Shown: positions 35,271 through 62,609 of the stretch, one piece after another
Numbering within the stretch: position 1 is the first letter of the stretch
Layout: each line of letters opens with the position of its first letter
Origin: a virus
Taxonomy: Duplodnaviria > Caudoviricetes
Virus record (IMG/VR): IMGVR_UViG_3300013936_000019
Coordinates: 1-64,000 of that record
Strand: one strand, 5' to 3'
DNA length: 64,000 bases
Notes under the pieces: generated by a model
What the model was told of the DNA's origin: nothing
Database searches by the model: none
What the model saw: only the letters and a program-made list of their open reading frames with translations
Program-made: the position numbers and the translations under genes

Positions 35271-37220
35271 ATGATTAAAAATATTTGTAAAGCAATAAAT
35301 GGTGATTTTAATTTAGATTTTATTCCAGAGTATTTATGGAAAAATAATTATAAAAATTATGCTAAATATTCACCATATGATAATAACTCTGTTATATTAT
35401 ATGTTAATTTAGATAAAATATATTCATTTTATTCAGACATTAATGATAATTATTCTAAGAATGGATTTATTAAGTTTTTTGAGCATGAAAATAGATATAT
35501 GTGGATAAAAAATGATTATAAATCAAAATAGAGGCAAACAAAATGAAAGATAATAACATTATAAAGGAAAATATTATTCTAATGGATTCGAATAAAGGTA
35601 TTTATAAAGGTGCGTTTATTCATAAAAAAGATTATGGCTTTTTTATGAAAGAAAACCAGTGAACTATTTGCGAACTTGAAATAATGAATGATTATAAAGG
35701 AGATAAACAAAATGGAAGCAAAAGAAGTTAACAACATAAAAGTATATGGTAAACAATATCACGAAATTTCATATGATGATAAATTTAAAATTGTGACAGA
35801 GCTATATAATTTTGCAAAAGGAACTATTAAAGGCAGTTACATTCCTAATGAATTATATTTAATTCCAGATAGCAATAAAGGAATTTATAGAGCTTGTAGT
35901 AACAATGAAAATAAATATTTAATATGCGATCTAGAAAAAGAAAACAATGAATATATTTGCCACAACATTATTACTTTAAAAGAATATGTTGAAAACCAAG
36001 ATAATGCTGCTACCATTGAAGTATTTAAGAGAAAAATTAATATGACTTTTTATACTGATGCTATCAAGAAAACTGAAGGGTTTTATAAAGATAATTATAA
36101 TAACTATTATGAAATAAAATTTGATGGAGATAAAACGGGAAGTATATACTTGGAAAATAAGAACAAGAGAGAATTTATTGACATTCGTAGCAATTATTGT
36201 GGAACTGAAATTGAATTTAATGACATTAAACTTGGTTATGCCGGAGATCGGGTTGAACAAAGAAGATCAATTTTAGAGTCTATTCTTGAATATGTTATGT
36301 TGAACAAAAATTTATTTAATGACTTTAAGAAACTTAAGGATGGATATATTTGGAATAATGAATATTATGAAAATTATGAGGATATATTATATGATATAGA
36401 GCAAAAAATAAAAAGTAAAAACCTTGAAAACAAATTTATGACAGAAGGTTTGACTTTAGACGATTTTAGCGACGAAAAATCTTGATTTATAAGAAATTTT
36501 TGCTATAATATGTATGGATTAAACTATTTAAAATTATAAAGGAGAATATTATGCAAAACTTTGAATTAGAATTAAGAAGATTTCGAATAGAAGACGAAGA
36601 AAAATGGAGAGAAATTATTGAAGACATCCCTGCTCTTAATTTTAAGAAAGAATGGAATGTTAGAATCATTCCTCCTTTTAGCGGTGCTATGGCTAGATTT
36701 TGGATTGATTATAACAATAAATGGGTGAGTGTATATCTTGATTGGTATGGTAGACTTGGTGTCATGGATCAGCCATATTATGAAGTTTATGATGGCGAAA
36801 ACACTATCAGATATCTGCTAAATGAAACTGACAAGATGATGGATGATATTGACAAAATTTTAAATAGAGTATCAATGCTTGATTTATATGAGAATTAGAA
36901 AATGCCCCTCCCAGTTTGTTGAAAAATTAGGCGATACTAGTTGCTCTATTTTCCTTATTTTGTATAAGAAATTAACAAATGCGATGCTAAATTAAATCTT
37001 GCCCTTTAGGGAGGAGGACGAAAATATGTCTAAAAATTTAAAAGAGTTGTTAAATGAAGAAAATTTATTTGGAAGTAATGGAATTAAAACGGAAGGAGAA
37101 ATTGATGATTTAGATTTGTGCGTCGAAGATAAGAATTTTCTTAAGGAGGAATTAGAAGGTATGACTACGCTAATGTATTTAAATGATGGCATGATTAAAT
37201 GTGATCCAGATTACGAATAA
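35271..37220 (+). other. hypothetical genes (35271-35531, 35712-36485, 36551-36898, 37026-37220)
   Basis: ORFs with RBSs; promoter TTGATT..TGcTATAAT at 36482-36509. Confidence 0.65.
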
Positions 37221-37232
37221 TGGAGGTAAAGT

Positions 37233-40040
37233 ATGTCTGAATTTGGCTTAAAAATAAAAAACATTAAAGCTGCAACTTTATTTGGATACAATAATGGAAT
37301 TAGAAACAGATATGATTATACAGACGCTATGTTTAGTAATAGCTTATTTAGTAAATATATTATTGCTAATGGGTTAAATGTATGGAAAGAAGAATCCACT
37401 AGAGATATTGTATGTTTTGAATTTGATTTTGGAACAAGAGATTATCAAGAAGAAATGAATCATTTGCAGGAGATGTTGGAAGAATGTAAAACTGAGACAG
37501 AAAAACAAAATGTAATTAAAATTATAGAAAATGTAGAAAATAATAAAGGCAAATATATAAAATTATCAAAAGAAGAAATTAGGTCTTTATTTTATAAAGA
37601 AGGAGTATATATTGATTACATTTCAAAAGATAAAGATGGGAATATAAAGAAATGTGATAGAATTTATTATAGAATGTTATATAGAAGTTCTGCAAAAGCA
37701 AAACTTGGGCAAGTAATGTTCATTAATGCTAAATTATATAATAAAGCATATGACTGGCTTACTATGGGATTAGGGCATAAAATGCCATATCATAATGCAA
37801 AAATAGTTGAAATGTCTGCATATGCTCCACTTACAACAAGCACTATTGTTGGAGAGATACATATTCCGGTTGAAAATATTGTAATTTTAAAAGATCAAGA
37901 TAGTTTTTTTAAGACCATGGCAAAAATTGTAAAAGCAGAAGAATACACAAAGGAAGTTAAAAAACTTGATGAAATTTCAACTGATAAAAATAGACAGAAA
38001 GCTTTAGAAAATAAAAACTATAATGAAAATGGTTCTCTAAAATATAAAAAAGTATACAAAACGGAAGATAAAATTGAAAAAAAGTGTGTAATTGAAGACG
38101 CTGAAACGGATGTTAAGAATACTTTGTGGGATGGAATGGGGCTTGTAGAGAGTGCAATTTTCCCTTCTTGGTGCAATGGAATGATGTTAATTAGAAATCA
38201 TTTCTTTAAAATGTGTGGGTTTAAAACAAATATGCAACTTTTTTTTAAAGATTGGTGTAAAAAGACAGGGAATGATTATGATACATATGAAATTTCTGAT
38301 ATGTTTGGTATTAAACATAGATTAAAGGATATAAAAGTTCTTACAACAGATAATGCCATTAAATGGAAAAAATTTATAGATATTATGGGAGGTACTTTAC
38401 CACTTGCCTATCAATACTGGTGTGAAAGAATTAATGCAGATGGTTCTATGTTTGGAATTGTTAAAACAGATCACCCAAGTAAATTAGGAAATAGTACTCA
38501 GCAAATGTCATATCAGATGATCAATACTCTTCCATGCAGCAAATTAGATATTGATGAACTTGCATCTGGAAGTGTTAGCTATGTTGAAAAAATGAAGTTT
38601 GACAATGATGAATTTGAAAGATTTTTAAGAATGAATTCAACGGAGGTAAATCATTATAAAATGATGATAGATTTGTATGAAAACAATAAAGATTTTGCTG
38701 AAAGTGAATGGTTCAGAAAAGAAAAGTCTAATATTATAAAGAATTATGTTGATAGATTAAGAAAAGGAAAAATAACGGTTAATGCAGATAATCTTACTGT
38801 ATGTGGTAATCCATATGGGTTATTAATGTATGCAGTTGGAGAAAATTGGCACGATGATCCAACATTGAATTACGAGAATGGAACAATTCAATGCTATACT
38901 ACTCTATTTAATGATGGAGAATACATTTGTGGTATACGAAATCCACATAATTCTCCTAATAATGTTGGGTATTTGCACAATAAATATAGTCCGGAAATGA
39001 AAAAATATTTTCCATTTAGCAATAATATTATTGCTGTTAATTGTATTCAGAGTGATATTCAGTCAAGATTAAATGGCATGGACTTTGACAGCGATTTTAT
39101 ATTTGCTACGAATAATAGAGTAATGGTAAATGCCGCAAAAAAATGCTATTCTGATTATCCAACAATTGTAAACGCATTAAATGAAAGTGGGATTACATAT
39201 AATAATGATATGCAGGCTTATGCTGACATGGATAATAAATTTGCAAAATCAAGACTTGGAATTGGATGGTCTAGCAATTTAAGTCAGCTTGCGATGACTT
39301 ATTATTGGACAAGTCCTTCAAAAGAATTGTATGATAATTTTGTTATCTTATCAGTATTAGCACAGGTAATAATAGATGGATGTAAAAGAGAATATGAAGT
39401 TGACGGGATGACAGAAATAAAGAGAATTAAAGCTCTTGATTGTATGAATAGATACATTGAAGTTAAAGATGAAAATGGCAAGGTTAAAAAGAAAAATTAT
39501 GATTATCCTTATTTTATGAAATTTGTAAAAGAAATTAAATATACAAAGAATGGTAAAGAAATTGAACATGAGAAAATAAAACAGCAGAAACAAAAGATAA
39601 AGGATAGAATTGATGCTTCTTTATTGTGTCCAATGAATTGGTTGCAAACAACATTAAATGGGATTAAGGTGTCTAGTAAAACAGATACAATTCCAACAGA
39701 GAATTTTATTGTTAATGTAAAAGGGAAAGCCGATTCTAGACAAATTTCTAAAATTAGAAAAATGGTTCAGGAATATGATATTTTTGTATCAAATAATTAT
39801 AACAATGAAGATGCCGAAGAACTTATTCAAGATAAGTTCAACGAGCTTGTTGATAATGTGTCAAAAATAAAAATAGGTGATATAAAAACTATAAATAGAC
39901 TTATAGAGATAGGATTCGGCATTAATACGTCAAAAAATGATAGTATGAATAAGAAATCAAAGACGTTATTAAATTGTTTATACAAAGCAAACCGTGAAAA
40001 ATTCATAAAAAACTTCAAAAAAAATGCAGAAACTGTTTAA
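37233..40040 (+). CDS. yonO: YonO-like single-subunit DNA-dependent RNA polymerase (RdRP-related two-barrel)
   Basis: 935 aa; DGMG, RNPH and catalytic LNGMDFDSD, plus IIDGCK; followed by HU as in SPbeta yonO-yonN. Confidence 0.88.
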   Translation: MSEFGLKIKNIKAATLFGYNNGIRNRYDYTDAMFSNSLFSKYIIANGLNVWKEESTRDIVCFEFDFGTRDYQEEMNHLQEMLEECKTETEKQNVIKIIENVENNKGKYIKLSKEEIRSLFYKEGVYIDYISKDKDGNIKKCDRIYYRMLYRSSAKAKLGQVMFINAKLYNKAYDWLTMGLGHKMPYHNAKIVEMSAYAPLTTSTIVGEIHIPVENIVILKDQDSFFKTMAKIVKAEEYTKEVKKLDEISTDKNRQKALENKNYNENGSLKYKKVYKTEDKIEKKCVIEDAETDVKNTLWDGMGLVESAIFPSWCNGMMLIRNHFFKMCGFKTNMQLFFKDWCKKTGNDYDTYEISDMFGIKHRLKDIKVLTTDNAIKWKKFIDIMGGTLPLAYQYWCERINADGSMFGIVKTDHPSKLGNSTQQMSYQMINTLPCSKLDIDELASGSVSYVEKMKFDNDEFERFLRMNSTEVNHYKMMIDLYENNKDFAESEWFRKEKSNIIKNYVDRLRKGKITVNADNLTVCGNPYGLLMYAVGENWHDDPTLNYENGTIQCYTTLFNDGEYICGIRNPHNSPNNVGYLHNKYSPEMKKYFPFSNNIIAVNCIQSDIQSRLNGMDFDSDFIFATNNRVMVNAAKKCYSDYPTIVNALNESGITYNNDMQAYADMDNKFAKSRLGIGWSSNLSQLAMTYYWTSPSKELYDNFVILSVLAQVIIDGCKREYEVDGMTEIKRIKALDCMNRYIEVKDENGKVKKKNYDYPYFMKFVKEIKYTKNGKEIEHEKIKQQKQKIKDRIDASLLCPMNWLQTTLNGIKVSSKTDTIPTENFIVNVKGKADSRQISKIRKMVQEYDIFVSNNYNNEDAEELIQDKFNELVDNVSKIKIGDIKTINRLIEIGFGINTSKNDSMNKKSKTLLNCLYKANREKFIKNFKKNAETV

Positions 40041-40193
40041 AATTAAAGTGTTTAAAATCCTTATTTTATAAGGGTTTTATGGCAAAAAAGTATTATGAGG
40101 TATATGAGAGGGAAATAATGCTTATTATTTACGCCTTTCAGAACAATTTTTTGTTAAACTATTTAAAATTATAAAAGGAGAAAAAGAGAAATT

Positions 40194-40466
40194 ATGAACA
40201 AGAAAGAATTAACGAGAGCAGTAGCAACTGCAACAGAAATGACACAGAAGGATGCCGAAGTTGCAATTACAGCAACATTTGATGCTATTACAAAGGCAAT
40301 GACAGCAGGTGAAGAAGTTGCAATTCCTAACTTTGGTAAGTTTGAAGCCGTTGAAGTTGAAGAAAGAACAGCAAGAAATCCACAGGATGGTTCTGAGGTT
40401 GTTGTACCAGCTCACAGAAAGCCTAAGTTCCGCGCAAGTTCTGTGTTAAAGAATATTGTAAAGTAG
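40194..40466 (+). CDS. hup: HU histone-like DNA-binding protein
   Basis: MNKKEL..., FGKF, RTARNPQ and PKFRAS signature. Confidence 0.95.
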   Translation: MNKKELTRAVATATEMTQKDAEVAITATFDAITKAMTAGEEVAIPNFGKFEAVEVEERTARNPQDGSEVVVPAHRKPKFRASSVLKNIVK

Positions 40467-40493
40467 ATATAGATTAATTTGTACGGTGGCATT

Positions 40494-40847
40494 ATGAATT
40501 GTACAATTGTTGGCAAGAACATTGAAATTACTGATGGGATGAGAAATTACGCCGAGGAGAAACTATCTAGATTGGATAGATTCTATGAGGATGTTGATCC
40601 AAGTGGACATATTAGAGTATTGGCTCGGGTATATCCAAACGGACAGAAAGTTGAAATTTCAGTTCCTGTAAAACATGGTAGCGTTCGTGCAGAAGTTACC
40701 AGTGATGATTTTTATGAATCAGTAGATTTGGCTATTGATAAACTTGAAGATCAGATTAGACGCCGTAAAACTAAGAAACTTAAGCGTAGAAAGCACGATA
40801 GAAGAAAAGGTGCTTATGATGACGACGACTATGATGATTGGAATTAA
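40494..40847 (+). CDS. hpf: ribosome hibernation promoting factor HPF/RaiA (S30AE domain only)
   Basis: GKNIEITDGMRNYAEEKLSRLDRF...RAE...DFYESVDLAIDKLEDQIRRRKTK. Confidence 0.92.
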   Translation: MNCTIVGKNIEITDGMRNYAEEKLSRLDRFYEDVDPSGHIRVLARVYPNGQKVEISVPVKHGSVRAEVTSDDFYESVDLAIDKLEDQIRRRKTKKLKRRKHDRRKGAYDDDDYDDWN

Positions 40848-40867
40848 TTAAACAATATATAACTGTT

Positions 40868-40889
40868 AGGCGGGTAATTCCCGCCTTTG
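40868..40889 (+). terminator. terminator-like hairpin after hpf
   Basis: AGGCGGG-TAATT-CCCGCCT followed by only a short T run. Confidence 0.6.
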
Positions 40890-40900
40890 AAAATAATATA

Positions 40901-41467
40901 AATTAACTCGGTGATAAACCAGCAGCAAACTGGCCGAGACGGATAGAAAAAGACAGAAAAGTGCTGATTGTGGCGATAGTCACATGAGTTTCTGAATATG
41001 TGTAGTGATGCACATGTTATAGCCTAGGAAGCAATCCTTAATATCCGGTACACATGCAAAAGCATTCAAAAGCAGAAATGAAGTCGCAGCACAATAGATG
41101 GTGCTCAAAAGGCACAAGAATCCTTGTTAGGTTGTAGTTTGGAAGACTATGGCAAACCACGGAAACTCCAATAAGCTGTTTGTCGTGAAACGGGAAACCG
41201 TGTATAAGACTTTATTCCGTCGTCTTAGTAGCCCAAGACAGTTGGCATTACAAGCAAATTATGGTAATATAGCTCATTTGATAAAAAGTAATTAAATACC
41301 TATATTAATACTGAAAGCGGGTGAAAGGTGCAGGTAGACAATCCTGTCTAATGTTCCACTCTTAGAGTGAGCTAAAGAAGCTTTAGGGTAGCTCCCTACT
41401 GCTCAGTCTTTAGTTGTTAGTGGCTGAATATGAATGAGAGAAACATGTGTAACCCGAAGGGGTAATT
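40901..41467 (+). ncRNA. large ornate ncRNA, probably ROOL
   Basis: About 565 nt without an ORF, with many hairpins and long-range helices. Blocks TTAGTAGCCCAA, GTGAAAG..GTAGACAATCC, GGTAGCTCC..GCTCAG and AGTGGCTGAATA match ROOL sequences as recalled. Confidence 0.72.
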
Positions 41468-41534
41468 TTTATATTATTTTCAAAGGTGAGAATGGAAACA
41501 GTGTATATTGTTATTTTTTATGGAGGAAAACAGA

Positions 41535-42623
41535 ATGGGAGTATATCTTGATCATGCGGCAACTGCTCCACTTTCTAGAAGCGTCGCTGACAATATAGAT
41601 GATTTAGCTAAGATATATTATAATCCTAGCGCCGGATATAAGATGGGAAACTATAATATGTCTGTTATAGAAAATGTAAGGGAAAAGATTGCAAAGGAAA
41701 TTAATGCTGAACCAGAAGAAATTATATTTACATCGTGTGCTTCTGAGTCAAATGCATTAGCAATTGATGGATTTTTAAAAGCAAATAAAGGATTTAAGGC
41801 TGTTTGCTCAAATATTGAGCATTCTTCTATTCTTAATAATAGGAATATTAGCGGCGTTATTAAATGTGATAAGAGTGGATTTATCAATCCGGATGATATT
41901 AATGAATATAATAATAGTCTTATTTGCGTTATGATGGTGAATAATGAAATTGGTTCCAGACAGTCTATTAAAGAGATTGTTGAAAATGCGCATAAAAATG
42001 GCAATGTTGTGTTGACAGACGCAGTGCAGGCGTTTGGAAAAGAAAAAATTGACGTAAAATATTTAGACGTTGATATGTTATCTGTGTCTGGGCATAAAAT
42101 TGGTTCTATAAGAGGTGCTGGCTTTTTATACGTAAAAAATGGCATTAAGTTAGAGCCTATTATATATGGAACGCAGGAATACGGTAAAAGAGGCGGAACA
42201 TATGATGATTTAGCAATTAAGACACTTGGTTTGGCAATTGATGATATTGATTATGATGAAGATAGAATTCTTCAGGCAAGAAGAAATTTTTTAATAAAAG
42301 AATTATTGTCTATTGATGGGGTTCATTTAAACGGAGAAGTCTTTAATAGAGCTTCTAATAATATAAATATTAGAATAAACAATGTTTCTGTTGACTCTCA
42401 GCAGATTGTTACACTGTTAGATCGGGCTGGATTTATGGTTAGTGCTGGTTCTGCTTGCCATGCAGAGGAGCCGAAACCGAGTCATGTATTAAAAGCAATC
42501 GGGCTTACAGACGAAGAAGCAATGCGTTCTATTAGAATTACTATTGGTATTGAAAATACAGTAAGAGATTTGGAAGACTTTGTGAAAGCTTTAAAAAACA
42601 TTATAGAAATGTTCAAAAAATAA
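41535..42623 (+). CDS. iscS: cysteine desulfurase IscS/NifS
   Basis: YLDHAAT, NPS, IEHSS, NNEIG, DAVQA, PLP lysine SGHKI and catalytic SAGSACH; ATG 41535 behind GGAGG. Confidence 0.93.
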   Translation: MGVYLDHAATAPLSRSVADNIDDLAKIYYNPSAGYKMGNYNMSVIENVREKIAKEINAEPEEIIFTSCASESNALAIDGFLKANKGFKAVCSNIEHSSILNNRNISGVIKCDKSGFINPDDINEYNNSLICVMMVNNEIGSRQSIKEIVENAHKNGNVVLTDAVQAFGKEKIDVKYLDVDMLSVSGHKIGSIRGAGFLYVKNGIKLEPIIYGTQEYGKRGGTYDDLAIKTLGLAIDDIDYDEDRILQARRNFLIKELLSIDGVHLNGEVFNRASNNINIRINNVSVDSQQIVTLLDRAGFMVSAGSACHAEEPKPSHVLKAIGLTDEEAMRSIRITIGIENTVRDLEDFVKALKNIIEMFKK

Positions 42624-42642
42624 TACGTTATTTTTTATTTAA

Positions 42643-44168
42643 GAATAATGCCGAGAATTCCCCCTTACTTGTATGGGGGATGAATCGGCAATCTTTGTTT
42701 GCATAAGATAACAGAATTTCGCATGCTTATGCAAAATTTCGACTACCATACGATGGTATAATATATATGACATTGCACATAGAAAGGAGACGATATGCCA
42801 CTTAGAAAGAAGAAACAAAAGAAATCACCTGTTGATCATAAGGCATATCGTTTTCTTGCCTTGCCTGATGATAATCAGAAACATATGTTTGCTAAGACAT
42901 TTGGATGTGTTAGATACTTATATGACAGGATGCTTGATGATAAGTCAAAGTGCTATAAGTACTTTGGCGAGTCACTAACTCTTACACCTGCTTGGTACAA
43001 GCACATCTCTTGCTGTCGTTGGTTATCAGAAGTAGATGCTTTGGCATTGGCTAATGTACAGCTCAATCTTAATACAGCTTTTCAGAACTTCTTTGAGAAA
43101 CGTGCAAAGTATCCAAAGTTCAAAAAGAAGTCTGACCATTATGATTCCTACACTACTAATGTGGTCAATGGAAACATAGTAGCCAGAAGTTCTGGAAAGT
43201 ACATATATCTAACACTTCCAAAAAATACCTGGTGAGTTACAGATTCGTAAGCACCGTCAGGTCAAATCTGGTGGAGTACTCAAATCCGTTACTGTTAGTA
43301 AAGAACCTAGTGGCAAGTACTACGTTTCTCTACTCTATGAGTATCAAACAATCAAACCAGATTATGAGATTGACCCATCCAATGCAGTAGGTCTTGATAT
43401 GTCTATGCCTAACTTCTACGTAAGTTCTAGAGAAGGTAGAATAGACACACCACACGCTTATCGCAAGATGGAAGACAGGCTTGCCAAAGAACAGCGTAGG
43501 CTATCCCATATGAAGAAAGGATCTTCTAACTACAAGAAGCAACGTTTGAAGGTTGCCAAGCTGCATGCAAAAACCAAGCATCAGCGCAACGACTTTCTAC
43601 ATAAAGCGTCTCGTAGATTGGTAAATAACTACGATATCATTGGTATCGAAGACCTTGATATGCAAGCAATGTCACGCTCATTAAACTTCGGAAAGTCGAT
43701 AGCTGATAAAGGATGGGGCATTTTTGTCAAGATGCTGATGTACAAAGCAGAAGCACTTGGAAAAGTAGTTATCAAAGTAGATAAGTGGTTTCCAAGTTCG
43801 CAGATGTGTCATGAGTGTGGATGCGTATCCAAACTCACAAAGGATTTATCTGTAAGAGAATGGGTGTGTCCGCAATGTGGCGCACATCTGTACAGAGATG
43901 ACAATGCAGCTAATAATATCGAAGCGGAAGCAGTAAGAATCTATTGCACACGCTAAGTAATAAACAAGAACCGTTGGAACGACGGGGATAGCCTGAGAAT
44001 ACTGTGTGGATAATACAAGACCATGCAGAATAACTACAGTCCTATGTAACGACTCACAGAAGTAATATTCTGTGGTAAGTAGCGCATAGCTAACAAACTG
44101 GAAACACAGGAAAAGTTCTTGTGGCAAAGCCACATAGAAGCTCGGTTACTTGTAGCCGAGTAGTTCAC
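42643..44168 (+). mobile_element. non-autonomous IS200/IS605-family (IS1341-type) element carrying tnpB only
   Basis: Left hairpin TCCCCC-TTACTTGTAT-GGGGGA and right hairpin CTCGGTTACTTGTAGCCGAG share TACTTGTA. Ends in TTCAC at 44168. Left end inferred after TTTAA. Confidence 0.8.
42795..43956 (+). pseudogene. tnpB: tnpB RNA-guided nuclease, frameshifted by one extra A
   Basis: Deleting one A from A6 at 43220-43225 gives a 386-aa frame (TLPKIPGELQIRKHRQ...) with RuvC GLDM, GIEDL and RDDNAA and Zn finger CHEC/CPQC. Confidence 0.9.
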
Positions 44169-44238: not shown

Positions 44239-45468
44239 ATGTTTGATATAGAGAAAGAATTGGCAGATAGAGGCTTAACAGAAGAGTCATATGAAGAAAT
44301 GCTGAGCGATTTTCAAAAGAAAACAGCACACGAAATCGATGATGATTGGACTGAATTGTCAGAAAAATGGGATCTTAACTGGTCGGGGGACGCTTGCAGA
44401 AAGGCATGTCAGGTTCCACTTTTGGGCGGCTCTTTTGTTAAACAATATTATGAAGAAAAAATGGCTAAGGGTTGCTCTGCAGATGAGGCTGAATATTTAG
44501 CCAAATTGGATGAAAAGAGAAGAGAGTTAGAAAGAGAACGAATCAAGTATCATGATTCTAGAAACGCTTGGCAGAAACAAAATTATAGTGCCTCTAGGCT
44601 TGAAGAAAATTTAAATATTTTAGAAAAATCGTTAAATGAACTTGGAAAAATTAATTTTGAAAATAGCAACAAAGTTAATATAAATTCTGATAATGATTTA
44701 ATTGTAATGCTTTCTGATTTACATATTGGAGCAGAATATGACAATATATTTGGTAAGTATAATTCTAATATTGCGAAAGAAAGATTGCAAAGATATTTAA
44801 ATGAAATTTTTGACATTGCAAAAACGCATAATGCAGAAAATTGTTATGTTGTTGCATTGGGCGATTTAATTAATGGAAATATCAGATTAACTGTTCAGTT
44901 GGCAAATAGAGAAAATTTAATTGAACAAGTTAAGGTCACTAGTGAATTAATTAGCAACTTTTGCTATGAATTAACAAAACATTTTAATAATGTGTACTAT
45001 ACGGATGTAAGTGGGAATCATAGCCGTGTAGTAACAAACAAAGAAGATGCAGTCCATGATGAAAGACTTGACGATTTAATTTCTTGGATTGTAATAAATT
45101 CTTTGGGACACATTGATAATTTTCATAGTTTAAATCATAGAAAATTTGACATTGGAATTGCAGACATTGAAGTTAGAGGCAAATTTTATCTTGGAGTCCA
45201 TGGAGATTGTGACACGACAAGTAAAAACGGCGTGATGAGTTTGTGCTTTATGGTTGGTTTCTTTCCAGAATGTGTGTTGCGTGGGCATTATCACTCGCCT
45301 TCCTTAGAAGAATACAACAACATAAAGGTTATTCAGGGTGGTAGCTTGAATGGAAGTGGAGGTTCCTACGAAATTGAAAAGAGAATTGTTGGAAAGCCTT
45401 CACAGACTACTTTAGTATGCAATTCAAATGGCATAAAATGTATTTATAATATTGACTTAACTATTTAA
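44239..45468 (+). CDS. calcineurin-like metallophosphoesterase (YonJ-like)
   Basis: SDLHIG, LGDLING, GNH, HGD and GHYH motifs. Confidence 0.88.
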   Translation: MFDIEKELADRGLTEESYEEMLSDFQKKTAHEIDDDWTELSEKWDLNWSGDACRKACQVPLLGGSFVKQYYEEKMAKGCSADEAEYLAKLDEKRRELERERIKYHDSRNAWQKQNYSASRLEENLNILEKSLNELGKINFENSNKVNINSDNDLIVMLSDLHIGAEYDNIFGKYNSNIAKERLQRYLNEIFDIAKTHNAENCYVVALGDLINGNIRLTVQLANRENLIEQVKVTSELISNFCYELTKHFNNVYYTDVSGNHSRVVTNKEDAVHDERLDDLISWIVINSLGHIDNFHSLNHRKFDIGIADIEVRGKFYLGVHGDCDTTSKNGVMSLCFMVGFFPECVLRGHYHSPSLEEYNNIKVIQGGSLNGSGGSYEIEKRIVGKPSQTTLVCNSNGIKCIYNIDLTI

Positions 45469-45500
45469 AATTATATAATATTTATGGAGGAAAAAGGATT

Positions 45501-55855: not shown

Positions 55856-57321
55856 ATGGCAAAGTTAATGTTTAGTAATGAAAGCACAAGAAATGTGTTT
55901 ACAAATAGAGATTATGATGCTTTTAAGACACTGATGGAAGACACTGCTGCAGGCAGATTCCAGCAGGGCATCACAAAGGAACAGGCTAACGATAAGATTC
56001 GTGAAGTCATGTTTGAAGTTCTTGGTGTAGATGAAAATACACCTAAGAAGGAAATGAGAAAGGCAATTCGTAGACATAAAGTTGATATCTACGAAGTTAT
56101 TGAAGAAGTTGTTCCGGATCTTCTGAACACTGGCTGGATTGACAATCCTTGGTTCAATCAGTTTGTTGATTATAGAAATCTGGCTTCTGGAGATACAAAC
56201 GAATTCTATGTAGAAGACGATGTTATCCTGACAGTAGCTAAGGTATCTGGTAACAGCCATGACATGCTACGTCAGAGACTTGGAGAAGGAAGTTCTTTCC
56301 AGGTTGCAACTTCTTGGTTTGGGGTTAAATCTAGCTCCCCTGCACTGTAAAGTGTTTGAATATATAACGCATTGAATTGCTGGAAAACCTTAAAGATAAT
56401 TGAACTACAACATAATCTGAAAATGATAAGTGTGAATGTTGCGAAAGTAGAAAAAATCAATTATATGGTATATGGTATAAACCTAAGTACTAATGCAATA
56501 GGCAATCAGCAGCCAAGACTATATAAAATTATATAGTAAGGTTCAACGACCATTCCTATTAATGGAAGTAGGATATAAGTGATTGATATCCGAAGTGGTG
56601 CGCCTCTCGTATGAGAGTGAAGATATGGTCTAATCTTTAGTGAAAGCTAAAGGGCTTATAAGCCAACATGGTGTAGCGACCAAATGTTAAATGAAAATGA
56701 AAGATTTACGCAGAATATGAAAGATTTATGAACGGTGTTGTTGACTGGTCTAAGTTTGTTCAGAAGATTTATGAAGCATTTGACCTGAAGGTTAATACTC
56801 TGGTTCATGATGCTGTTATGGCTGCAGGTGATAAGGTTCTTCCTGCTGAACAGTTTAAGAAGTCTCTTGAAATGAAGGCTGAAAATGAAGCAACAATTAT
56901 TGAACTCGCAGACGACGTCGCTCTTGCAAATGGTTCTGATGTAGTTATTATGGGTACAAAGCCTGCACTTGCTAAGCTTGCTTCTATCACACCTATTACA
57001 TATTATTCTGATGCGATGAAGGATGAAAGAAATACTCTTGGCAGACTTGGTGTCTGGAATTCGTATACTTTAATGGAGATCCCGCAGGCATACGCTCCAA
57101 ATACAACTTCCAAGAAGCTTGAAGACAACACAAAGCTTCTGATTATGCCAGTTGCTGACAACAAGTTCATCAAGTTCGTCAATGAAGGCGATGCTCAGTT
57201 CTATGAAAATACAGATCCATCCAAGAATATGGATATGACTGTTGAAGCTGAATATCAGCAGAAGATGGGCTTTGCTACTGTTATTAACAGAAAATTTGGC
57301 GAAGTTAAGATTACAGGATAA
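55856..57321 (+). CDS. major capsid protein (YonB-like), spliced from exons 55856-56325 and 56700-57321, 363 aa
   Basis: Joining GGG GT|A AAG ATT restores ...SWFGVKIYAEYERFMNG...; size and position fit the major capsid protein. Confidence 0.85.
56326..56699 (+). ncRNA. group I intron (ORF-less, 374 nt) in the major capsid gene
   Basis: P AATTGCTGGAAA 56375, Q AATCAGCAG 56504, R GTTCAACGACCA 56541, S AAGATATGGTC 56620; P1 U-G wobble; terminal G. Confidence 0.92.
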
Positions 57322-61424: not shown

Positions 61425-62609
61425 ATGGCATTTAATATTGATGGAATCATTATTGATAGAATCCAGATGGGTATTGCAGAAGACTTCTCTGGTAATGTGT
61501 TATACACACTGACACAGCTTGCTGATGCTACAATCGAAGTTACTGCTGAAAGTAAGGAAGCTAAGGATGCGAACGGAACTCTGATTAAGACTTTCTATAC
61601 AGGTAAGTCCGGTACATTTACAGCTAACAACGCTATGCTTGACTTCAACATTATGGCTGAAGCTACAGGTACAGCTAAGGAAGTTGCAACTTCTTCTAAG
61701 AAGATCACTATGCCTGGTATTAAGTCTGTTAAACCAGGGACAAAGACAGTTACGCTTAAAGGCGTAAAGGCAGACACTGTTTCTGTAGTTGGTATTGCTG
61801 GTAATGGTACTCTTATTAAGAAGTATACTAAGGATTCTGCTGCAAATGAAACAACATTTAGCATCTCCGGAGAAGTTCTGACTCTGCCAACAGATACTAA
61901 TGCGCCTGCAGAATATGTTATCAAGTATGATAGAGATGTAGAATCTGGTGTTAAGGTTGCCAACAGAGCTGATGAATTCCCAAGAACAATTAAATTAACT
62001 CTTAAGGCATTGGCAGTAGATCCTTGTTCTCCAGACACCGTAAGATCATGCCTGATCGTACTTCCGTCCTTCCAGGTATCTCCTGAAACATCTATCAGTT
62101 TACAGACTGATGCACAGCTGGAGTATAAAGGAAGCTTACAGGTAGATTACTGTAATGCAGCGGGTTAACGAAACTAGCTCCTATGTTTAGAGATAAGCAT
62201 AGAGTGATATGTAAATACATATCCAAATATTTCTCTAATTGCTGGGAAATCGTAGAACTAATTAAACTACAACGCAATATCTGAAAAGATATAAACGTGA
62301 TAGTTGCGAAAGCAGAAAAAATTAATTAGACGGTATATGGTTAAAACCTAAATACTATAATAGGCGACAATCAGCAGCTAAGACCGAGAGGTAAAGTTCA
62401 ACGACTATGGCGTAATGCCAGTACATCTAAAGCTAGGTGGAAATGGGAAACTGCTTAAAATTATAATATATAAAAGCAGAAGATATAGTCTATTCTTGTA
62501 TGAGAATACAAGCAGTTCATAAGAGAACGGTATTGTGTAGCGAACAATATGAATTTTGAAGAAGGTTTTGTATGAAATCTATATGGCTGAAGAAGATACA
62601 GAAGAATAA
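61425..62609 (+). CDS. major tail tube protein (YomU-like), spliced from exons 61425-62165 and 62559-62609, about 263 aa
   Basis: Joining gives ...DYCNAAG|KKVLYEIYMAEEDTEE*; Thr/Ala-rich composition; terminator follows exon 2. Confidence 0.75.
62166..62558 (+). ncRNA. group I intron (ORF-less, about 393 nt) in the tail tube gene
   Basis: P AATTGCTGGGAAA 62237, Q AATCAGCAG 62369, R GTTCAACGACTA 62396, S AAGATATAGTC 62480; P1 GGGU/AGCUC; terminal G at 62558 (62561 also possible). Confidence 0.92.

Follow-up and report, generated by a model that had tools for sequence, protein, structure and literature searches.

A divergent full-length ROOL RNA without adjoining tRNA genes in an uncultured large low-GC phage

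Introduction

ROOL is among the few natural RNAs known to form a closed cage alone. The family, Rfam RF03087, was described by Weinberg et al. 2017 (PMC5737381), and cryo-EM has shown that it assembles from RNA alone, with eight subunits for env-120 and E. faecalis and six for L. salivarius (PMC12286853; PMC12990946). An apical stem is said to decide between hexamer and octamer. ROOLs occur in phages or prophages, and a place beside tRNA genes is typical of them but not obligatory. The solved cages are the env-120 octamer (PDB 9MDS; PMC12286853), the E. faecalis octamer and tetramer (9J3T/9J3R) and the L. salivarius hexamer (9J6Y) (PMC12990946). Conserved bridges between chains are the L8:J6/8 contact, B4, and the L18:L18 contact, B6, which joins the half-cages; the linker is disordered and lies inside the cage in the solved ROOLs (PMC12286853). 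For the E. faecalis RNA, a symmetric 4-bp kissing loop was reported (PMC12990946). The other large ornate phage and prophage RNA that is often found near tRNAs and builds an RNA-only cage, GOLLD, is unrelated to ROOL in sequence and fold. Published speculation links the cages of ROOL or GOLLD with the handling of tRNAs or ribosomes.

Here, we describe a ROOL RNA from a 64-kb stretch of DNA, hereafter the window, that forms the first part of a 94,095-bp IMG/VR virus record (about 56% complete by CheckV). The record has a GC content of roughly 30–35% and two divergent gene arms, and its source is an uncultured large low-GC phage of the gut type. As in other ROOLs, we find a full-length model match, the family's helices, junctions and conserved blocks, a variable linker and a location in a phage. 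The window's copy differs in having at most 53% identity to other viral members, no tRNA neighbour, a longer middle P3 hairpin, one long-range helix placed 5 bp outward and a linker 27 nt longer than in the model.

Results

Identity and limits of the RNA

In a cmscan search of the whole 64-kb window with Rfam 15, the ROOL model matched positions 40883–41484 of the plus strand with 306.7 bits (E 1.4e-69), three times the gathering score of 99.1 bits, and the match covered all of the model (positions 1–574 of 574). A repeat search of the 94,095-bp record found the match again, as a single copy. ROOL was the sole large-RNA match in the window, where the covariance models for GOLLD, OLE and raiA gave zero matches at gathering score. 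A protein-coding reading is ruled out by dense stop codons, 14–17 in each plus-strand frame; one spurious 54-aa open reading frame clips the 3′ end. The stretch encodes a genuine ROOL RNA at full length, which is an ordinary member of the known family.

These results bear out an earlier note, made from the sequence alone, which had called the RNA probably ROOL and had proposed a cmscan comparison with ROOL, GOLLD, OLE and raiA; only the first scored above gathering. The note had also likened the length and the sequence blocks to those of ROOL, and all six conserved blocks occur in order (Table 1). A sequence check found every motif that it quoted where it had placed it. It had set the limits at 40901–41467, or about 565 nt. 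The position was right and the length was not, because the closing helix P1 lies outside these limits; with helix-defined ends the RNA is about 597 nt long, and the family mean is 581 nt.

Table 1. Genes, helices, tertiary contacts and conserved blocks at the ROOL locus (window coordinates).
Feature	Position	Strand	Evidence or remark
935-aa phage gene, left edge of variable slot	37233..40040	+	phrog_8308; 29 relatives, 54–62% identity
HU-type DNA-binding protein gene	40194..40466	+	PF00216 1.3e-27
Short ribosome hibernation factor (HPF/YfiA), 122 aa, upstream neighbour	40479..40847	+	PF02482 2.1e-24; TIGR00741 1.4e-23; PDB HPF chains 9e-21
GC-rich hairpin GGCGGG-TAATT-CCCGCC	40869..40885	+	directly 5′ of P1, then only UUUG; from sequence, not called by terminator scan
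ROOL RNA gene	40883..41484 (Rfam extent); 40887–41483 (helix-defined)	+	cmscan full-model match
P1 closing helix, 5′ strand TTGAAAATAATATAAA	40887..40902	+	perfect 16-bp complement of 41468–41483; outer helix of Rfam consensus
P2 CTCGG (40907)/CCGAG (40934)	40907..40938	+	consensus helix; encloses hairpin CCAG/CTGG
P3 domain, CGGATA (40940)/TATCCG (41042)	40940..41047	+	closes three hairpins; consensus and MFE fold
P3 domain hairpins	40955–40993, 40994–41019, ~41022–41032	+	inside P3
Long-range helix, 5′ strand TACACATG	41049..41056	+	perfect 8 bp with 41444–41451
Second long-range helix, 5′ strand CATTCA	41063..41068	+	perfect 6 bp with 41431–41436
Conserved block ACAAUAGA	41091	+	sequence check
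L8 loop UGGA	41140..41143	+	complementary to J6/8 UCCA; bridge B4 pairing of env-120 cage
J6/8 UCCA	41167..41170	+	partner of L8 UGGA
Conserved block CCAAUAAG	41168	+	sequence check
Hairpin ACGG-GAAA-CCGT, conserved	41190..41201	+	consensus helix
Conserved block GUAUAAG	41202	+	sequence check
Hairpin GTCTT-AGTAGCCC-AAGAC	41222–41239	+	specific to window sequence, outside family fold
Conserved block AGUAGCCC	41227	+	sequence check
Variable AU-rich linker, 73 nt	41237..41309	+	flanked by stem GCCC 41231–34/GGGU 41319–22
Linker 3′ flank ACUGA	41310..41314	+	conserved pseudoknot with UCAGU 41403–41407
Conserved block GGGUGAAAG	41319	+	sequence check
P18 hairpin TAGGG-TAGCT-CCCTA; L18 UAGCU 41389–41393	41384..41398	+	consensus helix
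UCAGU, internal loop between P17 and P18	41403..41407	+	partner of 41310–41314
Conserved block GUGGCUGAAUAU	41420	+	sequence check
Second long-range helix, 3′ strand TGAATG	41431..41436	+	in conserved block GTGGCTGAATAT (41420–41431)
Long-range helix, 3′ strand CATGTGTA	41444..41451	+	perfect 8 bp with 41049–41056
P19 hairpin ACCC-GAAG-GGGT	41452..41463	+	consensus helix
P1 closing helix, 3′ strand TTTATATTATTTTCAA	41468..41483	+	perfect 16-bp inverted repeat with 40887–40902; in MFE fold
NifS/IscS-type cysteine desulfurase, downstream neighbour	41535..42623	+	PF00266 5.1e-54; ATG 41535, GGAGG 8 nt upstream
TnpB (IS200/IS605), broken in two open reading frames	42795–43235, 43399–43956	+	profile matches; 1.3 kb downstream of ROOL
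SbcD-like exonuclease gene, right edge of slot	44239..45468	+	phrog_284 8e-57

Homologues and covariation

A pattern built from two of the conserved blocks retrieved 32 viral contigs, among which Rfam confirmed 24 full-length and three truncated ROOLs; five short-span matches were manA or manA-like RNAs, and a nhmmer profile added two full-length ROOLs. The window's ROOL is 44–53% identical to other viral members, with a maximum of 53% among about 40 sampled, and is a new, divergent member of the known family. BLAST searches of a phage GenBank collection with the ROOL stretch and with the 12 kb around it returned zero matches. In a tree of ROOLs, the window's copy sits on an isolated long branch whose placement the tree does not settle, so that it favours neither a vertical nor a horizontal origin.

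Covariation was assessed on a plain MAFFT alignment of 24 ROOLs, the window's and 23 from other phages. With the projected structure (see below), 60.7% of cells were paired, compared with 38–44% when the 3′ partners were slid, and 90 pairs were changed on both sides, compared with 49–72. The covariation score was 0.221, against 0.09–0.13 for slid partners, and none of 500 shuffles scored as high. These figures are conservative, since the alignment is not structure-aware and several helices in it are visibly misaligned. The phage homologues covary with the window's ROOL in the same helices, which answers the covariation check that the earlier note had suggested.

Secondary structure

The consensus line of the cmscan alignment was projected onto the window sequence. 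Both partners are present for 151 of the 159 consensus pairs; as aligned by the model, 121 of these are canonical and 30 are not, and more of them turn canonical in the local register of the minimum free energy (MFE) fold. The MFE of the stretch is -170.4 kcal/mol, with z-scores against shuffles of -5.05 on the plus strand and -2.85 on the minus strand, and chance does not account for the structure. Of the eight helices proposed in the earlier note, seven coincide with consensus helices of the Rfam model in this alignment and also occur in the MFE fold. The eighth, GTCTT/AAGAC, was rejected as a family feature because it lacks conservation and because a covarying stem competes with it: GCCC of AGUAGCCC (41231–34) pairs about 85 nt downstream, beyond the linker, with GGGU (41319–22), and this stem is 99% paired across the 24 ROOLs with nine double changes.

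In the alignment of 24, P2 is paired in 100% of cells, and four of its five pairs are changed on both sides; relative to the majority, the window carries a double change at one of the five (G-C for A-U). P19 is also 100% paired, and all four of its pairs are changed on both sides. The middle P3 hairpin has 11 bp in the window and exceeds that of the other aligned ROOLs by about 5 bp. The two long-range helices are the window's counterparts of the consensus helices by which the 5′ half of the RNA is linked to the 3′ half. Here, the model alignment is locally off by 1–5 nt, and the MFE fold uses the register of the earlier note for both (8 bp and 6 bp). The 8-bp helix has three pairs in common with its consensus counterpart, and the rest extends outward into a consensus junction; this 5-bp outward shift could alter the junction geometry. 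The linker contains a 27-nt insertion relative to the model and is unalignable among homologues.

Predicted contacts for cage assembly

The complementarity of L8 and J6/8 was assigned to bridge B4 through supplementary table 3 of PMC12286853. It covaries across ROOLs, where it takes the forms UGGA/UCCA, UGGU/ACCA, UGGC/GCCA and UGAG/CUCA. The pseudoknot at the linker flank, which matches the covarying pairs 458–461/578–581 of env-120 (PMC12286853), is ACUGA/UCAGU in the window, UCUGA/UCAGA in most ROOLs and GCUGA/UCAGC in the relative L038, so that its first pair is A-U in the window and G-C in L038. Taken jointly, the nine pairs of the two contacts are paired in 94.4% of cells, as opposed to 26–52% after sliding (24 ROOLs). 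The window's ROOL thus keeps both the L8:J6/8 contact and the linker-flank pseudoknot by compensatory changes. The L18 loop, UAGCU, contains the self-complementary AGCU, which is compatible with the 4-bp symmetric kissing loop of the E. faecalis RNA.

Compared with the solved cages, the window's RNA has the L8:J6/8 complementarity (B4), a 5-nt L18 with a self-complementary tetranucleotide (B6) and a linker between the same flanking stems. The elements needed for cage assembly are thus present, and we infer the assembly itself. Judging from its three homologues with cryo-EM structures, the monomer would fold into a flat, multi-junction shape, and copies of it would then join on their own, with no protein, in a homo-oligomeric cage that is hollow and closed, either an octamer or a hexamer. 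Loop–loop and A-minor contacts would build this cage, with the 73-nt AU-rich linker inside. A divergent ROOL that still keeps the pairings that join subunits is useful for covariation and design work.

Genes around the ROOL

The ROOL lies in an all-plus-strand block of genes with PHROG matches, in the order 935-aa gene, HU, HPF, ROOL, cysteine desulfurase, broken TnpB and SbcD-like exonuclease. The phage HPF consists of the ribosome-binding N-terminal domain only, without the C-terminal dimerisation domain of long HPFs; its tail is first basic and then acidic (KKLKRRKHDRRK...DDDDYDDWN). Cysteine desulfurases are sulfur donors for tRNA thiolation and Fe-S clusters. The one encoded here also matches TIGR03402 (9.5e-82), under the equivalog cut-off. 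TnpB is probably a pseudogene, because it is split into two open reading frames and lacks approximately profile positions 130–185. The slot between the 935-aa gene and the exonuclease has a GC content of 0.35–0.38, above the 0.28 of its flanks, as expected for acquired cargo.

We considered HU, HPF, ROOL and desulfurase as a conserved cassette and rejected this idea. We compared 22 further records, from phages that bear a ROOL or are related, 11 of them at least 90% complete. HPF (PF02482) occurs in none of the 22 and desulfurase (PF00266) in one, where it lies at another place. tBLASTn with the window's proteins gave zero matches in the other ROOL loci (L002–L033), and searches of viral contigs with the desulfurase and HPF found no close relatives of either. 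Since the association of HPF and desulfurase does not recur in other records, we regard the set around the ROOL as accessory genes brought together by chance and give a functional meaning a small probability.

A variable slot and the tRNA genes

The 935-aa gene is carried by 29 viral contigs, in most of which the exonuclease follows downstream across a variable intervening space. In 20 of these 29 relatives, the slot holds a ROOL according to the nhmmer profile. The ROOLs of slot relatives score 290–341 bits, and in three scanned relatives a full-length Rfam ROOL in the same slot is followed by a tRNA 89–98 nt downstream. In the five scanned relatives that lack the RNA, the slot or the DNA beyond it contains tRNAs, as many as 10 in L034, and ten relatives without a ROOL in the slot have none elsewhere in their records. 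Because the slot content varies in this way, with ROOL plus tRNA or tRNA alone, ROOL is a patchy accessory of this phage group, placed where relatives keep tRNA genes.

The earlier note saw no tRNA genes nearby, and ARAGORN likewise found none in the window or in the whole 94,095-bp record, which is about 56% complete. Among 41 other full-length viral ROOL loci, a same-strand tRNA lies within 150 nt of the ROOL in 37, and tRNAs abut it directly on both sides in 19 (tRNA-Met and tRNA-Ser in 18 of these), although many of the 41 loci are near-identical and the independent lineages much fewer. Two other full-length viral ROOLs, in L012 and L033, are also without a tRNA in their loci, and the neighbours of the L012 copy are unrelated. 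The absence of adjoining tRNA genes is the sole unusual trait of the window's ROOL as a family member. A phage can therefore keep a ROOL without an adjoining tRNA gene. This speaks against any function with a strict requirement for a neighbouring tRNA in cis and implies a tRNA-independent way of forming the ends of the RNA.

Transcription and RNA ends

In the tRNA-embedded phage ROOLs (for example L005, with tRNA-Met, ROOL and tRNA-Ser 0–8 nt apart), an RNA of the same family on the strand of the surrounding genes has tRNAs abutting both ends, so tRNA-processing enzymes could define these ends. The window instead has a GC-rich hairpin upstream and an mRNA start downstream, and maturation must differ. 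The hairpin may be either a weak terminator of HPF or a 5′ end or processing structure, judging by its sequence; GC-rich hairpins closely precede the ROOLs of the relatives L038 and L036 too. On the other side, P1 is separated from the desulfurase start codon by 51 nt, the ribosome-binding site lies within about 40 nt of the ROOL, and the terminator scan found no strong terminator between the two. Scans for sigma-70 promoters and terminators around the ROOL gave counts at the level of shuffled sequence, and two promoter-like sites inside the linker were accordingly taken as chance. A look-up of public sequencing runs for positions 39500–43000 of the window listed none.

A recurrent promoter-like motif, with the core TTAAAATTATA and the longer form TTAAACTATTTAAAATTATAA, occurs in at least 19 oriented copies in the record. 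The motif flips strand with the gene arms, and most copies stand directly before ribosome-binding sites; examples on the transcribed strand are at ~40150–40173, 36515–36538 and 45452–45479 of the window. The last of these matches a sigma-70 promoter with a score of 11 of 12, which makes it probable that the phage uses the motif as its main promoter. The copy nearest to the ROOL, at ~40150–40173, lies ahead of HU. With no room for a promoter of its own, no strong terminator and no flanking tRNA, the ROOL is probably co-transcribed rightward with HU and HPF from this copy and then trimmed.

Discussion

We are highly confident that positions 40887–41483 of the plus strand encode a true ROOL RNA, about 597 nt long, which a large low-GC phage carries as accessory cargo. 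Our guess is that its most likely role would be in the phage's reshaping of host translation, because the slot holds tRNA genes in relatives and is occupied here by HPF and desulfurase. HPF, desulfurase and the relatives' tRNAs are all related to translation, which fits the published speculation on cages and tRNAs or ribosomes. A more specific reading is that the ROOL comes from an mRNA-type operon (HU, HPF, ROOL, desulfurase) instead of a tRNA array and acts together with the truncated HPF. Its targets would be the ribosomes or tRNAs of the host, and the cage might, for instance, capture or store thiolated tRNAs or the subunits of ribosomes. If true, it would provide the first functional handle on ROOL. 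We consider it quite unlikely. The pairing with HPF and desulfurase is not repeated in other phages, and these neighbours are only a hint that ROOL belongs to cargo for taking over translation.

The lack of tRNAs could also mean that the window holds a decaying relic, once part of a tRNA array, whose tRNAs were lost when HU, HPF, desulfurase and TnpB inserted, and whose processing and function are gone. The contrast between 94 kb without a tRNA and the close same-strand tRNAs of 37 of the 41 other viral loci would agree with such a history, as would the broken TnpB 1.3 kb downstream, the long isolated branch in the tree and a score of 306.7 bits, below the 370–395 bits of the tRNA-embedded group. 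However, the match spans the whole model with all helices and conserved blocks present, and the ROOLs of the phage's relatives score similarly (290–341 bits). Full-length viral ROOLs without tRNAs in their loci also exist in L012 and L033. Moreover, where the window's RNA departs from other ROOLs, the changes compensate one another, both within stems and within tertiary and quaternary pairings. This implies selection on the structure, and decay is quite improbable. The RNA might instead act mainly in cis, not as a free cage but as part of an mRNA, serving desulfurase as a long 5′ leader or stabiliser, or HPF as a 3′ element. Suggestive of this are the shared strand of ROOL and neighbours, the 51 nt to the desulfurase start with no strong terminator between, and the presence of only a weak hairpin after HPF. 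Yet ROOL members adjoin unrelated genes or tRNAs, 21 of the 22 other records lack desulfurase, and the solved ROOLs exist as particles of their own (PMC12286853), which makes a cis role very improbable indeed. A purely formal alternative, for which we found no support, places the RNA in a different class of large ornate RNA, be it GOLLD, OLE, raiA or an unclassified, new one. It has next to no probability and is refuted by the match itself, ROOL being the sole structured-RNA family to match the stretch, at full length, with GOLLD, OLE and raiA below gathering score.

Observations on neighbouring genes and RNAs

The 935-aa gene at the left edge of the slot contains a GMDFDSD motif at residue 617, and the proteins that tBLASTn matches distantly (20–22% identity) in phages of Enterocloster and Thomasclavelia carry the annotation RNA-dependent RNA polymerase. 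Phages of gut Clostridia thus include relatives of this gene. From these sequence features, its product may be a single-subunit double-psi-barrel RNA polymerase. The gene is interrupted in three relatives by 0.28–1.3 kb of intervening DNA, which follows residue 710 in L052 and residue 616, immediately ahead of GMDFDSD, in both L055 and L056; Rfam detected no introns in the interruptions of L052 and L055.

The manA RNA (RF01745) has a short block, GGGUNGCUCCC ... GUGGCUGAAUA, in common with the P18 region of ROOL. It differs in being about 190 nt long, in its overall structure and in the spacing between the two blocks, 11–13 nt compared with about 23 nt in ROOL. The manA RNAs at L009 3048–3233 and L030 5004–5188, and those in L011, L015 and L025, some of them below threshold, begin with GGGUNGCUCCC and GUGGCUGAAUA, and the pair may be a module common to two phage RNA families. 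In six of the phages with the arrangement tRNA-Met, ROOL, tRNA-Ser (L003, L006, L007, L010, L017 and L023), a RAGATH-21 RNA (RF03097) lies 230–700 nt upstream of the ROOL. Besides the ROOL, the Rfam scan of the window gave just two matches at gathering score, both group I introns far downstream, at 56316–56652 (+; 65.1 bits) and 62177–62512 (+; 66.9 bits).
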